This document shows, piece by piece, positions 32,917 through 54,632 of a DNA stretch of 55,444 bases. Numbering within the stretch: position 1 is the stretch's first letter; every line of letters begins with the position of its first letter. The notes beneath the pieces were generated by a model. It was given only the letters and a program-made list of their open reading frames with translations, did no database searches and had not been told where the DNA came from. Where the stretch lies: assembly GCA_043801485.1 (NCBI GenBank), contig JAZDLY010000168.1:1-55444 (forward strand), given 5' to 3'. The stretch is from Candidatus Omnitrophota bacterium (lineage in GTDB: Bacteria; Omnitrophota; Gorgyraeia; Velamenicoccales; Velamenicoccaceae). Made by a program: the position numbers and the translations under genes.

Positions 32917-33035
32917 AACTAGCCAAAATTTTTTCAGATTTAAAAAAGTGGTTCACCTATTATCCGCTCTATAAGCTCATCGCCCTGGTCCTTGCCATCG
33001 TGATCTATTTCTATGTGAACGCAGAGTTTAAATGA
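32913..33035 (+). pseudogene. 40-codon remnant resembling the N-terminal TM anchor of CdaR/YbbR
   Basis: ATGA overlap with the cdaA stop. MKLAKIFSDLKKWFTYYPLYKLIALVLAIVIYFYVNAEFK* resembles YbbR N-termini (..LKxxSLxLAxxLWxYV). The frame stops at the first base of the repeat block. Confidence 0.5.
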
Positions 33036-33125
33036 GGGCATAACTTATGGAGCGATAGCGTCCGCCACAAAGCTTCGGCGGATCCGCCAATTATTTTGGC
33101 GGAAACATAAGTTATAAGCCCGAAT
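33036..33125 (+). repeat. 90-nt compound-hairpin direct repeat, copy 1
   Basis: 89/90 identical to 33210-33299. ATAACTTATG...CATAAGTTAT encloses two TCCGCC-loop-GGCGGA hairpins. Confidence 0.9.
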
Positions 33126-33199
33126 TTATCCCGTGCCTGCGAGCAGTTTCCATCACTTGGATTTAGAAATCTGCGAAGCGTTCAGGCATCGGGATAACC
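33126..33199 (+). repeat. Module D copy 1 (nested hairpin, about 74 nt)
   Basis: TTATCCCGTGCCTGCGAGCAG..GAAATCTGCGAAGCGTTCAGGCATCGGGATAACC. Homologous to 46880-46955 and 52977-53047. Confidence 0.85.
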
Positions 33200-33299: not shown

Positions 33300-33441
33300 C
33301 AAGCACCTTGATATGCACCGTAGGTGCATTTAGCGAATTGAGCTCCTTAATGCCAATTCAGCGAAATCCCGCGTAAGCGGGAGTCCTTGTGAGCGTAAGC
33401 GAACAAGGATTATCCCGAAGCGTTCAGGCATCGGGATAACC
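33300..33441. repeat. Module mosaic A-B-C plus an internally deleted D
   Basis: CAAGCACCTTGATATGCACC-GTAG-GTGCATTTAGCGAA; AATCCCGC-GTAA-GCGGGA; GTCCTTGT-GAGCGTAAGCGAA-CAAGGA; TTATCCCG/AAGCGTTCAGGCATCGGGATAACC (33410-33441), which shares its 3' 26 nt with D copy 1. Confidence 0.85.
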
Positions 33442-33455
33442 ACCTTTATTCCTCC

Positions 33456-34169
33456 ATGCCTAAACTCGGCGTTAACATCGATCATATTGCGACTCTCCGG
33501 CAGCTGAGGCATTCCTTGACGCCGAGTCTGATCGAAGCTGCCCGGATTTGCGAAAACAGCGGTGCGGATTCCATTGTTGTTCATCTGCGTCAAGACAGGC
33601 GCCATATTCAAGACAAAGACGTTTGGTCTTTGAGACGTCGCGTCCAGAAAAAATTTAATTTAGAGATGTCGGCGGCGCCCGCCATTGTGCGGATCGCCTG
33701 TCGGGTCAAGCCTGACCAGGTTACCCTGGTGCCGGAGCGAAGGCAGGAATTGACGACCGAGGGCGGACTGGATGTTGTTAAGCACTGGCGCAGGATTGAA
33801 CGGGCCGCAAGAGAGCTCAAACGCCAAATGATTGATGTGAGTCTATTCATTGAGCCAGCACAAGAACAGATCAAGGCCGCTGCAAAATTGGGTATCGATA
33901 TGGTTGAGATCCATACGGGCGCCTATGCTAATAGCCTCAACCAGAGGAAGCGCGATAAGGAATTTTTAAAAATCAAAAACGCTGTAACTTATGCTCATGA
34001 GTTTGGTCTGACGGTGCATGCCGGTCATGGCCTGGATTACGGCAACACGCGGCCCGTTGCCCGTCTGGCCCATATGCAGGAATTAAACATTGGCTATTCC
34101 ATTGTTTGTCGTTCGGTATTCGTCGGGCTCGCTCAGGCGGTCCGTGAAATGAAAGCGCTCGTCAAATGA
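33456..34169 (+). CDS. pdxJ: Pyridoxine 5'-phosphate synthase
   Basis: LGVNIDHIATLR, HLR.DRRHI, EIHTG, HAGHGL. Confidence 0.95.
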   Translation: MPKLGVNIDHIATLRQLRHSLTPSLIEAARICENSGADSIVVHLRQDRRHIQDKDVWSLRRRVQKKFNLEMSAAPAIVRIACRVKPDQVTLVPERRQELTTEGGLDVVKHWRRIERAARELKRQMIDVSLFIEPAQEQIKAAAKLGIDMVEIHTGAYANSLNQRKRDKEFLKIKNAVTYAHEFGLTVHAGHGLDYGNTRPVARLAHMQELNIGYSIVCRSVFVGLAQAVREMKALVK

Positions 34170-46748: not shown

Positions 46749-46960
46749 GTGAGCGCATAACTTACGGAACGATAGTAAACGTAAGTTATATGTGCGAACT
46801 TATCCTTGACGCTTTCCCCTAAATATTTCAAGGTAGGCGTCGAGGATAAATGAATCGCGACTTCCGGGGCGAGCAAGGATTATCCCGTTCCCTGCAAGCA
46901 GATTTCCGGTTAATGTGTTCTAAATCTGCGCAGCGATTAGGGCATCGGGACTTCCACCAT
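46749..46960. repeat. Module mosaic E-F-C'-D after hom
   Basis: ATAACTTACG-GAACGATAGTAAA-CGTAAGTTAT (46757-46789), ATCCTTGACGC..GGCGTCGAGGAT (46802-46847), GAGCAAGGAT, and D copy 2 (46880-46955). Confidence 0.85.
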
Positions 46961-46988
46961 AATGTAAAAAAGGAATGTGAGGTTTGAG

Positions 46989-48050
46989 ATGTATTACAAG
47001 GGCTTGCTCGACAAATACGCCAAATTTTTACCGGTGACTCCAAAGACACCGGTTGTCACGCTCAATGAGGGCAATACTCCTTTGATTTATTCGCCTGTGG
47101 TTTCCGAGCTGACAGGCTGCAAGACATTTTTGAAGTACGAAGGCGTAAACCCGACCGGTTCTTTTAAAGACCGCGGCATGACCATGGCGATTTCCAAGGC
47201 CAAAGAAGAGGGTTCGAAGGTTGTGATGTGTGCTTCAACCGGCAATACATCTGCTTCTGCCGCGGCTTATGCGGCTCGCGCAGGCTTGCGCTGTGTGGTG
47301 TTGATTCCATCCGGAGCCATTGCCCTTGGAAAACTCGCTCAGGCCTTGATCCATGGCGCCCACGTGTTGGCGATCAAGGGAAATTTTGACGATGCCTTGA
47401 ATCTCGTCAAAGAAATTACTGCGAAATATCCCATCACCCTGGTGAATTCTCTTAATCCCTATCGGATTGAAGGTCAGAAAACCGGGGCGTTTGAAATCTG
47501 TGATGCCTTACAGGCAGCACCCGAATATCATGCGATCCCCGTTGGAAACGCAGGGAATATCACAGCCTACTGGAAGGGGTATAAAGAATATCAACAGGCA
47601 GGTTTGACCGGTAGCCTTCCTCAGATGTTGGGGTTTCAGGCATCCGGAGCAGCACCTATCGTTAAAGGCAAGCCTGTTCGGAATCCGAAAACAATCGCCA
47701 CAGCGATTAAAATCGGCAATCCTGCCAGCTGGAAACAAGCGGTGGCTGCGCGGGATGAGTCCCATGGCTTGATTGATTCCGTAACAGATAAAGAAATTCT
47801 GGAGGCCTACAAGTTGTTGGCAAACAAAGAAGGTGTTTTTGTCGAGCCTGCCTCTGCGGCTTCGGTGGCCGGCGTTCTCAAACTGTCCCGGCAAGGATAT
47901 TTTCGCCAAGCGAGCGCGCATCAGGCGCGGCTGGTGTGCGTGTTGACCGGGCACGGTCTCAAGGATCCTGACCGCGCCATGGCGTCCATCAAAAAACCAA
48001 AGATCGTCAAGCCTGAATTAAAAACAATTTTGAGAGAAATAGGATTTTAG
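46989..48050 (+). CDS. thrC: Threonine synthase
   Basis: MYYKGLL.., PLP lysine motif [20 protein letters not shown] 46989 is preferred over GTG 46977. Confidence 0.95.
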
Positions 48051-52902: not shown

Positions 52903-52909
52903 CTTAAAG

Positions 52910-52932
52910 AGGCCATATTTGGCCTAATTTTA
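52910..52932 (+). terminator. Weak candidate intrinsic terminator after lysC
   Basis: AGGCC-ATATTT-GGCCT followed by AATTTTA. Only a 5-bp stem. Confidence 0.3.
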
Positions 52933-53047
52933 GAACCTTAATGTTCAAAGTTTAGCGAAATCCCGCGCAAGCGGGAAATCCCGATACCTGCAAGCAGATT
53001 TCAATCGCAAAGTCTCGGAAATCTGCGAAGCGTTAAGGTATCGGGAC
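52933..53047. repeat. Module mosaic A'-B-D after lysC
   Basis: GAACCTTAATGTTCAAAGTTTAGCGAA, AATCCCGC-GCAA-GCGGGA, and D copy 3 (52977-53047) with perfect stems TCCCGATACCT/AGGTATCGGGA and GCAGATTTC/GAAATCTGC. Confidence 0.85.
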
Positions 53048-53060
53048 AAGAGAGGATACC

Positions 53061-54632
53061 ATGGCAAAAGTTCAGCTTTACGACACCACATTGCGTGACG
53101 GTTCTCAGACGGAAGGCATCTCTTATTCTGTCTCCGACAAGATCAAGATCGCCCGCAAGCTAGACCAGCTTGGTCTCCATTACATTGAAGGTGGATATCC
53201 GGGGTCTAATCCGAAAGATAAAATGCTCTTTCAGGAATTGAAAAAACACCCCCTGAAGAATGCCAGGCTTGTGGCGTTTGGCTCAACGCGCAAAGCCGGA
53301 GTGCCGGCGGCCAAGGACAGCGGTTTGAACAGTCTGGTGGAATCGGGCGTGCAGACAGCCACAATTTTCGGAAAAACCTGGGACCTGCACGTCAAGGATA
53401 TCTTGAGAGTCAGCCTGGATGAGAATCTGGAGATGATCAAAGACTCGGTTGAGTATCTCATCTGCGAAGGCCTTGAGGTCATCTACGATGCGGAGCACTT
53501 TTTTGACGCCTACAAAGCCAATCCGGATTATGCGATCAAGACAATTAAGACAGCGGCCGAGAGCGGAGCAAAGCTGGTCTGTCTCTGTGATACCAACGGC
53601 GGCACGCTGACGTCGGAAATAGCGACGATTGTGCGCAAGGTCAAAGACGAACTTGGGGCGCCGCTTGGAATCCACACGCACAACGATCTGGGCCTTGCGG
53701 TCGCAAATTCTATTGTGGCGGTTGAAGCCGGGTGTGTCCAGGTTCAGGGCACGATGAATGGCTTGGGCGAGCGCTGCGGGAATGCGGACCTTGTTGCGAT
53801 CATCGGAATCCTGAAGTTCAAACTCCACAGGGAAGCTCTGAGCGATGAGAGCTTCAAAGACTTGACGGAAGCTTCTTATTTTGTGAGCGAAATCAGCAAC
53901 TTAAAACACATGGACAATCAGCCTTTTGTGGGCAAATCCGCGTTTGCGCACAAAGGCGGGGTTCACATCAACGCGGTTTTGAAGAACCCCAAGAGCTACG
54001 AGCACATTGATCCTTCCGCAGTCGGCAATGTGCGCAGGATTCTGGTTTCGGAATTGGCGGGCAAGACGCCGATCCTTCTGAAGGCCAAAGACCTCAACCT
54101 GGATTTGGAAAAGGAATCTCCTGAGTCCAAAAAAGTCCTTAAGCTTTTACAGAAGCTTGAGCACGAGGGCTATGCTTTTGAAGCCGCGGATGCCAGTTTT
54201 GAGGTTTTGGTCAAAAAAGCCTTGAAACAGCATAAGAAATTTTTTGAGCTTGAGGGTTTTCGCGTGATCGTCGAAAAAGGCAAACAAGGCAAGATCTCGT
54301 CCGAAGCCACGATTAAACTGGCGGTCGGCAAGGTAAAAGAACACACGACCAGCGAAGGCGATGGTCCTGTTAATGCCTTAGACAATGCCCTGCGTAAGGC
54401 GCTCAAAGGCTTTTATCCCGGTGTTCTGAAAATGCATTTGTCTGATTTTAAAGTGCGCGTTTTGGATGCCAAGGAAGGGACTGCGGCCAAGGTGCGGGTC
54501 CTCATCCAGTCGCAGGACGAGCATGATTCCTGGACCACGGTCGGAGTTTCGGAAAACATCATCGAGGCGTCCTGGCAAGCCCTTGTCGACAGCATTGAAT
54601 ATAAATTGATGAAAGACGCTTCCAAGAAGTAA
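53061..54632 (+). CDS. cimA: Citramalate synthase (LeuA/CimA family, long form with regulatory domain)
   Basis: LYDTTLRDGSQ, HTHND.GLAVAN, C-terminal LeuA-dimer domain. The 523-aa length and N-terminus are typical of the CimA clade. Confidence 0.85.
   Translation: MAKVQLYDTTLRDGSQTEGISYSVSDKIKIARKLDQLGLHYIEGGYPGSNPKDKMLFQELKKHPLKNARLVAFGSTRKAGVPAAKDSGLNSLVESGVQTATIFGKTWDLHVKDILRVSLDENLEMIKDSVEYLICEGLEVIYDAEHFFDAYKANPDYAIKTIKTAAESGAKLVCLCDTNGGTLTSEIATIVRKVKDELGAPLGIHTHNDLGLAVANSIVAVEAGCVQVQGTMNGLGERCGNADLVAIIGILKFKLHREALSDESFKDLTEASYFVSEISNLKHMDNQPFVGKSAFAHKGGVHINAVLKNPKSYEHIDPSAVGNVRRILVSELAGKTPILLKAKDLNLDLEKESPESKKVLKLLQKLEHEGYAFEAADASFEVLVKKALKQHKKFFELEGFRVIVEKGKQGKISSEATIKLAVGKVKEHTTSEGDGPVNALDNALRKALKGFYPGVLKMHLSDFKVRVLDAKEGTAAKVRVLIQSQDEHDSWTTVGVSENIIEASWQALVDSIEYKLMKDASKK

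Follow-up and report, generated by a model that had tools for sequence, protein, structure and literature searches.

Short imperfect palindromes, found between genes in tens of copies, are well known as the REP/BIME and REPIN-RAYT elements of E. coli and Pseudomonas; several module types are joined there in fixed-order mosaics, the stems carry compensated changes, and the elements are usually co-transcribed with the flanking genes (PMC3116915). Module D, the hairpin repeat of an Omnitrophota genome considered here, is like them in these respects, its co-transcription being presumed. Compared with REP, it is longer (60–75 nt) and built in two tiers, of which the inner hairpin can be exchanged; there is no GTAG at its foot, and the Omnitrophota copies are single and co-oriented, not inverted doublets as in REPINs. 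D is also similar to the non-autonomous 60–150-nt repeats that occupy untranslated regions and intercistronic spacers in other bacteria: Correia/NEMIS in Neisseria, ERIC/IRU in enterobacteria, and BOX and RUP in pneumococci, of which BOX is modular (A-B-C) as well. With hairpin MITEs it shares a long transcript hairpin that is a plausible substrate of RNase III or RNase E; it differs from them in that no TA or other target duplication and no parent IS were found for it, in its unrelated sequence, and in junction nucleotides that are conserved across two phyla. In the cyanobacterial 'very small mobile repeated elements' of Elhai et al. (2008), tiny hairpin units are reportedly nested within hairpins while the overall fold is kept. 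D is set apart from the small dispersed repeats of cyanobacteria by sequence, by host phylum and by having a single nesting point, the junction after GCGA(A).

Hairpin repeats that resemble REP, BIME or MITE elements are already known as a kind. What appears to be new in D is the two-tier frame whose interior can be exchanged, a junction conserved in two phyla, and a search for a RAYT or transposase partner that yielded none. No paper linking Omnitrophota with REP elements was found in the literature searched. Omnitrophota are uncultured and have small genomes, so repeats that fill most of their longer spacers need explaining.

The window is the whole stretch of 55,444 nt that was analysed, contig C41 of the source Omnitrophota MAG (G000; 1.44 Mb, 92% complete); GC skew is steadily positive across it. 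The initial annotation had described a nested hairpin of about 72 nt, with three full copies and a fourth from which the inner hairpin was said to be precisely deleted. The three full copies were recovered exactly where they had been placed. The fourth is also real and extends here from 33408 to 33444 (+), but its loss is larger than had been thought, as TGCCTGCG is missing too. The copies, the parts of the third (flagged) copy and its immediate neighbours are as follows.

33126–33199, + strand: module D copy 1, full length, with module A before it and the word ACCAC.. after it (covariance model score 71.9 bits)
33408–33444, + strand: truncated D frame, ATCCCG joined directly to AAGCGTTCAGGCATCGGGAT, without P2 and TGCCTGCG
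46880–46955, + strand: module D copy 2, which belongs to the TTCCC/GGGAA, CAA/GCA subfamily and occupies the spacer that precedes ORF 46977–48050 (67.2 bits)
52960–52976, + strand: module C1 hairpin ATCCCGC-GCAA-GCGGGA, directly abutting D copy 3
52977–53047, + strand: module D copy 3, full length (87.2 bits; RNA minimum free energy −31.9 kcal/mol, z = −5.6)
52979–52989, + strand: 5′ arm of P1, TCCCGATACCT, pairing with 53036–53046 (fold and covariation)
52990–52993, + strand: 5′ half of P1b (GC) and 5′ side of the junction, AA here and GA in most copies (fold)
52994–53002, + strand: 5′ arm of P2, GCAGATTTC, within the 22-nt core common to Magnetococcales (fold and covariation)
53003–53017, + strand: apical loop, 15 nt, loosely conserved
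53018–53026, + strand: 3′ arm of P2, GAAATCTGC (fold and covariation)
53027–53035, + strand: 3′ side of the junction, G-N-A (GAA), 3′ half of P1b (GC) and the 4-nt bulge GTTA
53036–53046, + strand: 3′ arm of P1, AGGTATCGGGA (fold and covariation)
53050–53063, + strand: Shine-Dalgarno-like GAGAGG and ATG of cimA (ORF 53061–54632; CimA relatives support this assignment)

All four copies have + orientation, and the ORFs on either side of their spacers have it too. Copy 3 ends 13 nt ahead of the cimA start codon, and the truncated frame 12 nt ahead of a pdxJ-like ORF (33456–34169), for which a contig search found no strain-variant contigs. The 28-nt 3′ consensus of D had no match in 100 shuffles of the window, and each of the window copies folds far better than shuffled sequence. 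Around copy 3 no consensus promoter or terminator sites were found. A small separate hairpin, GAGGCCATATTTGGCCT, occupies 52907–52929, directly after the lysC stop codon and ahead of the module array.

The consensus fold of D consists of an outer stem P1 of 11 bp, a GC/GC clamp of 2 bp (P1b), an RA/GNA internal loop, an inner stem P2 of 9 bp and an apical loop. P1 has the consensus TCCCGnnnCCT / AGGnnTCGGGA, mostly with one bulged base; P2 is GCAGATTTC / GAAATCTGC, and a 4-nt bulge, GNTN, lies on the 3′ strand between clamp and P1. The apical loop measures 14–15 nt. The initial annotation had called it entirely different in each copy; family-wide, it follows a loose consensus, CCATnGCAAnGTnTCnG. 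On the 3′ side of the junction G and A are invariant while N may be A, C, T or G, so that the 3′ word reads GCGNAGC. The heptamer d(GCGNAGC) is the classic, very stable GNA-triloop mini-hairpin word of DNA (Hirao and Yoshizawa). The likeness of D to such GNA-triloop or GNRA-capped hairpins extends beyond the word with its free N: frames that have lost their interior close as GC-GAA-GC, and apical inserts end in GNA (GTA, GAA, GCA). The triloop is a structural word and not a genetic element, and in full copies of D it is interrupted by P2. A kink-turn, which calls for a 3-nt bulge before tandem G.A/A.G pairs and for GA right against the C stem on the opposite strand, was dropped on inspection only, given a junction of 5′-RA and 5′-GNA with an intervening N and, in Omnitrophota, a GNTN bulge that lies on the 3′ strand beyond the 2-bp clamp.

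Covariation was assessed in 55 distinct copies, some from this genome and others from relatives; they are kin by descent and stand in a model-fitted alignment that leans towards the structure; with this proviso 95.6% of stem cells are paired, as compared with 81.9% after column shuffling and 30–44% with slid partners. Changes on both sides occur in 17 of the 19 stem pairs, and cells with a double change outnumber those with a single change (123 versus ∼58). The outer-stem covariation that had been pointed out between window copies, TGCC/GGCA versus TACC/GGTA, is a true GC to AT replacement. The clamp covaries as well (GC to AU, CG to UA): its pairs 16/67 and 17/66 are paired in 100% of the 55 aligned copies, AU and UA variants included. 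More than 10 differently compensated versions of P1 are present within one genome, and P2 has several variants. Divergence in the stems of the many copies that a genome-wide search added to the original four is compensatory, not random.

The fold is specific to one strand. When both are folded as RNA, the top (sense) strand has a mean advantage of 2.4 kcal/mol over the complementary one; it comes out ahead in 40 of the 55 copies (p = 2e-6) and in 24 of the 31 copies from this genome. In the unambiguously aligned helices there are 18 G·T pairs and three A·C pairs, which indicates that one strand folds and that it is the sense strand. The matching transitions at unpaired positions number only 53 versus 38, so mutational bias alone does not explain the asymmetry. 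The sense-strand fold of D is kept by selection, and the suggestion made at the outset, selection on structure, is supported: stems are conserved and compensated, the apex is free to vary, and the excess of wobble pairs is strand-specific.

D might be a neutral, decaying palindrome without selection on the fold, its covariation arising from several subfamily masters that were palindromic from the start, or from template-switch repair between the arms. Linked variants do define subfamilies, such as TTCCC/GGGAA with CAA/GCA, the alignment was fitted to the structure, and truncated and nested copies exist. We nevertheless consider this very improbable: such decay would have to produce more than 10 distinct compensated P1 variants and several of P2, twice as many double as single changes or thereabouts (the 123 versus ∼58 above), loops that diverge around stems that stay paired, and an 18:3 ratio of G·T to A·C that exceeds the 53:38 background.

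Copies across the genome were collected with nhmmer and with R1, a covariance model based on 31 copies. There are 32 strong full-length copies (E < 1e-12) in the 1.44-Mb genome, thus at least 32 full ones, and ∼15 further copies that are weaker, partial, truncated or variant; the total is ∼47, all intergenic. Of 48 cases, 43 have another module immediately before D (A 16 times, C2 10, B nine and C1 eight), and in 18 the word ACCAC.. follows; in these mosaics, whose order is fixed, D is always the 3′-most hairpin. Mosaics in which numerous short, imperfect palindromes of intergenic DNA combine with other motifs are what characterizes REP/BIME elements, and D fits this. Within a modular repeat family, D is a real and abundant hairpin module, structurally constrained and specific to one strand. 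The initial proposal of a structured RNA or MITE core holds in part. Selection on structure is borne out; an independent RNA of ∼72 nt or a stand-alone MITE core is unsupported, as D is the last hairpin of a mosaic, has an exchangeable interior and is distributed like a repeat. In our judgement D is probably the largest, 3′-terminal hairpin unit of a REP/BIME- or MITE-like modular interspersed repeat family and not an RNA gene.

Module A begins with T(T)AAATGAG, a word seen at 33027–33036 of the window and at many array starts genome-wide; an A hairpin follows ∼70% of all its occurrences in the genome. In many arrays the TAA of this word is the stop codon of the upstream ORF, and the stop then lies ∼52 nt before D.

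The interior of D can be missing altogether. 'Empty' frames of 37 nt, ATCCCGTGCCTGCGAAGCGnTTAGGCATCGGGAT, close directly as GC-GAA-GC; this genome has five, the related genome G012 eight and G017 four. Such empty GAA frames are the product to be expected if slippage occurred between direct repeats of CTGCGA on either side of P2. Elsewhere the junction carries alternative inner hairpins (GCCCCGTT.., GAAAATTTC.., GGACGTCCC-GTA-.. and GGAGTGCC..), all of them unrelated, or other modules nested within the D frame (TTGAACACC.. plus CCCGCGAAGGCGGG). Nested B-like and C1-like modules follow CTGCGAA at C134:3636-3752, C130:7416-7498, C162:7830-7912 and C100:7612-7695 of G000. The nesting point is a single defined spot, giving a hairpin within a hairpin. 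In relatives the apex is either shortened to 4–6 nt or replaced by a GNA-capped mini-hairpin, and at one orthologous site in two congeneric genomes such a mini-hairpin is the sole difference. P1 and the RA / G-N-A-GCG junction thus make a constant frame, in which P2 and the apex can be lost, shortened or swapped.

No clear target-site duplication was recognised for D. The pair TAAATGAG / TTAATGAGG at array ends was considered as one and consists of conserved parts of modules that are not locus-specific; the CTGCGA repeat around P2, considered as well, belongs to just one subfamily.

Matches to R1 were obtained in 13 of 41 close relatives and in 21 of 301 genomes sampled across the phylum. Copy numbers range from 0 to 35 or more per genome: most carriers have 1–8, G017 has 19 and the source genome has the most. 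The source copies are old, with a mean pairwise identity of 0.68 and a maximum of 0.89. A spacer of G017:C71 holds a composite of A and D (∼114 nt) that its orthologue in the congeneric G005:C1 lacks; presence/absence polymorphism at orthologous sites of this kind is a mark of MITEs. Junctions with D that are common to relatives are just 2–3 among ∼43 copies, and at a common junction G000 and G017 carry different subfamily variants, each of its own genome's type. The distribution of the family is patchy, burst-like and cross-phylum, with presence/absence polymorphism. No match to D was found in IMG/VR, where a viral origin was looked for.

A conserved cimA leader was considered and rejected. 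D was found within 2.5 kb of cimA in none of 80 metagenomic cimA loci (53–78% identity); the closest relative (78% identical) keeps the lysC-cimA synteny around an unrelated 155-nt spacer from which the array is absent. The genes downstream of D code for S13, L13, ArgRS, an ABC ATPase, CCA/poly(A) polymerase and FolC, as well as a T2SS ATPase, MgsA, a radical-SAM enzyme and MurJ; the window copies stand ahead of the pdxJ-like ORF, the ORF at 46977 and cimA. The downstream genes have no common function and few junctions are common to relatives, so a gene-specific cis-regulatory RNA (riboswitch or leader) was rejected too. Rfam gave nothing at gathering score in the window, the copies or 12 related loci, and chance-level matches only at E up to 10.

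By crude ORF calls, on which all counts of orientation and distance rest, D copies of the source genome in tandem gene contexts are sense in 19 cases and antisense in two; six lie in convergent and two in divergent spacers. In 12 of the 19 tandem cases, 6–29 nt separate the 3′ end of D from the start codon that follows. G017 is less biased (nine sense, four antisense, four divergent). The sense bias of the source genome is inseparable from replication-strand bias, as ∼90% of its genes lie on one strand per contig (38 versus 3 ORFs in the window); neither GC3 skew nor gene strand could split the effects of transcription from those of replication there.

These positions bear on the possibility that D is a host-selected, cis-acting structured RNA of 5′ untranslated or intercistronic mRNA whose repeat-like spread is secondary. 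P1, junction and P2 would then dock an RNA-binding protein, an RNase or the ribosome and tune how well the gene that begins 6–29 nt downstream is translated or how stable its message is. Such a role would account for stems that are paired even in old, diverged copies, for a sense-strand wobble excess beyond mutational bias, for unpaired junction nucleotides (R-A and G-N-A-G-C-G) that are invariant even across phyla, and for the start-codon spacing (12 of 19) and orientation (19 versus 2) just given. It accords poorly with downstream genes of no common function, the lack of D in 280 of the 301 phylum genomes and before cimA in 80 of 80 relatives, a P2 that can be deleted or replaced, the antisense and divergent-context copies of G017, the lack of an Rfam match, and a core embedded in MITE terminal repeats of Magnetococcales. 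We hold it to be unlikely.

The Magnetococcales were encountered in an exact-pattern scan with 22 specified bases, AGCAGATTT..AAATCTGCGNAGCG, over one genome per species; the counts that follow are among the matches listed. The core was matched in other Omnitrophota MAGs, in two MAGs labelled Planctomycetia or Planctomycetales in which the full mosaic is present, and, unexpectedly, in at least three Magnetococcales genomes. Single matches in other lineages, four of six inside open reading frames, were taken as chance matches. The Magnetococcales MAG YD0425bin7 has 90 exact core matches, 45 per strand, and some of its full D frames are identical 12 times over. The outer stem of these copies is GGCGCGCT/AGCGCGCC, and a second type of P2, AGCCGAYGC.., occurs in the same frame. 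Next to them stands a hairpin, TGCCCC-GCA-GGGGCA, that corresponds, with compensated changes, to the B-module hairpin of Omnitrophota, TGCACC-GCA-GGTGCA.

These frames sit in the long terminal inverted repeats of a MITE-like element of 350–420 bp (∼90 copies, e.g. L064:2860-3250 and L079:780-1210 in YD0425bin7), a further likeness of D to MITEs. Matches to the terminal repeat number ∼140 in the 3.6-Mb YD0425bin7, as compared with 11 and 4 in two related genomes. Both orientations are mixed on single contigs in Magnetococcales, and the elements gather at convergent gene ends (40, versus 8 divergent). The 22-nt core and the hairpin TGCNCC-GCA-GGNGCA, both common to Omnitrophota and the Magnetococcales MITEs, point to cross-phylum transfer; miniature repeats would have passed between organisms of the same sediments.

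A mobilising enzyme was sought in several ways. The source genome has a RAYT-like Y1_Tnp gene (G000:C72:506-1333, 275 aa) that has a 41-nt palindrome, TTAATGCAACAAA-GGACAGACC-TTTGTTGCATTAA, on either side, and C72:456-1500 is a classical REP-RAYT arrangement. This palindrome has ∼21 copies across the genome and is unrelated to modules A–F; an association of D with the RAYT was rejected, as the genome's own Y1 gene goes with a different palindrome family, unlike the pairing of REPINs with their RAYT. D does not flank the Y1 transposase genes of G012, G025 or G324 (a Magnetococcales MAG), and in G017 a Y1_Tnp match was not found despite the burst of D copies. An IS200 tnpA at G000:C165 was rejected as partner because the hairpin there is unrelated. 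No recurrent protein or transposase family was found beside D. Long-spaced pairs of terminal inverted repeats in G324 enclose host genes only (sirohaem synthase, MCP, PadR, TauE, DsbD and a sigma-54 activator) and no transposase; some IS copies may be missing from MAG assemblies.

All 41 relatives have tiny GIY-YIG ORFs, which are multicopy (1–11). The one at G000:C5:4497-4688 (48 bits; about 98 aa) is bracketed, in the region C5:4380-4790, by two inverted A modules and by a 15-bp inverted repeat, CCCTTGACATTTTT / AAAAATGTCAAGGG; the ORF ends at the Shine-Dalgarno sequence of the next gene. Beside 12 GIY-YIG loci in relatives no D hairpin was found.

This locus matters for the proposal that D is a recombination or transposition site of single-stranded DNA, its hairpin being extruded on the template of the lagging strand, where a structure-specific enzyme would cut or copy it, so that RNA folding would be irrelevant; HUH/Y1 or small GIY-YIG nucleases would be candidates. 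The bracketed GIY-YIG ORF with its inverted repeat fits this, module A being the usual 5′ partner of D, and so do the strand-specific fold with its conserved bulges and the match of GCGNAGC to the stable DNA triloop word. Where genes run in the direction of replication, moreover, the sense strand of D is also the template of the lagging strand, in a genome with ∼90% of genes on one strand per contig. Against it, no D copy adjoins any GIY-YIG or Y1 gene examined, the copy number of GIY-YIG ORFs does not track the presence of D, and orientations in Magnetococcales are mixed on single contigs and follow gene ends. We regard the proposal as distinctly unlikely.

Integron attC sites also fold as one strand, conserve structure over sequence and have conserved bulges around a variable centre. 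An attC reading was dropped on inspection: D has no RYYYAAC/GTTRRRY core sites and ends ATCCCG...CGGGAT, and this lack of R′/R″ cores likewise weighs against the single-stranded DNA site. There is no gene-cassette arrangement, the copies being scattered among housekeeping genes.

Speculatively, P1, the RA / G-N-A-GCG junction and the A/T-rich P2 could be what is recognised by a hairpin-specific system, as yet undescribed, that Omnitrophota and Magnetococcales share through horizontal transfer. Its partner may be a mobilising enzyme other than a transposase, with the tiny GIY-YIG proteins as candidates, or a conserved RNA-binding factor. We think this unlikely; if true, the interior of D would be a slot for other mini-hairpins, and D would stand for a new class of hairpin-in-hairpin mobile element and not for another REP.

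Under the reading we prefer, that D is a unit of an interspersed repeat family, the family would have spread through the intergenic spacers of some Omnitrophota, related versions occurring in Magnetococcales. Probably an enzyme copies or moves the element in the form of a folded single strand, as it is the hairpin and not the sequence that is preserved. Resident copies persist mainly in sense, between co-directional genes and just upstream of the next ribosome-binding site, where they would be co-transcribed and form an mRNA hairpin of ∼22 bp. Such a hairpin would act, if at all, generically and not gene by gene, as a 3′ stabiliser, a processing site or an insulator between cistrons, as in REP, ERIC and Correia. 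Selection at the level of the element alone fits poorly with old source-genome copies that are still paired, which hints at a function at host level; a genuine host-level RNA function is, in our estimate, unlikely.

D makes a clean testable case of a two-tier hairpin kept on one strand, with the junction as a defined site of inner-hairpin gain, loss and exchange. If the mobilising enzyme is neither a RAYT nor a classical transposase, the known routes by which REP-like elements are acquired would be widened; if the hairpins act in mRNA, they would amount to a genome-wide layer of post-transcriptional punctuation in Omnitrophota. For annotation we advise masking the D family and making no riboswitch or sRNA call from it.

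Several copies lie close to tRNA genes. Six are within 115 nt of one, and four of these, in leaders or trailers, have the orientation of the tRNA. A D of another Omnitrophota MAG separates an intron-containing tRNA from the terminator. Two MAGs have group I introns (Rfam RF00028), at L121:7230-7530 (−), with 66.8 bits, and at L132:7107-7313 (−), with 51.9 bits; the former interrupts a tRNA-like gene and is followed by module arrays that include D, and then by a terminator.
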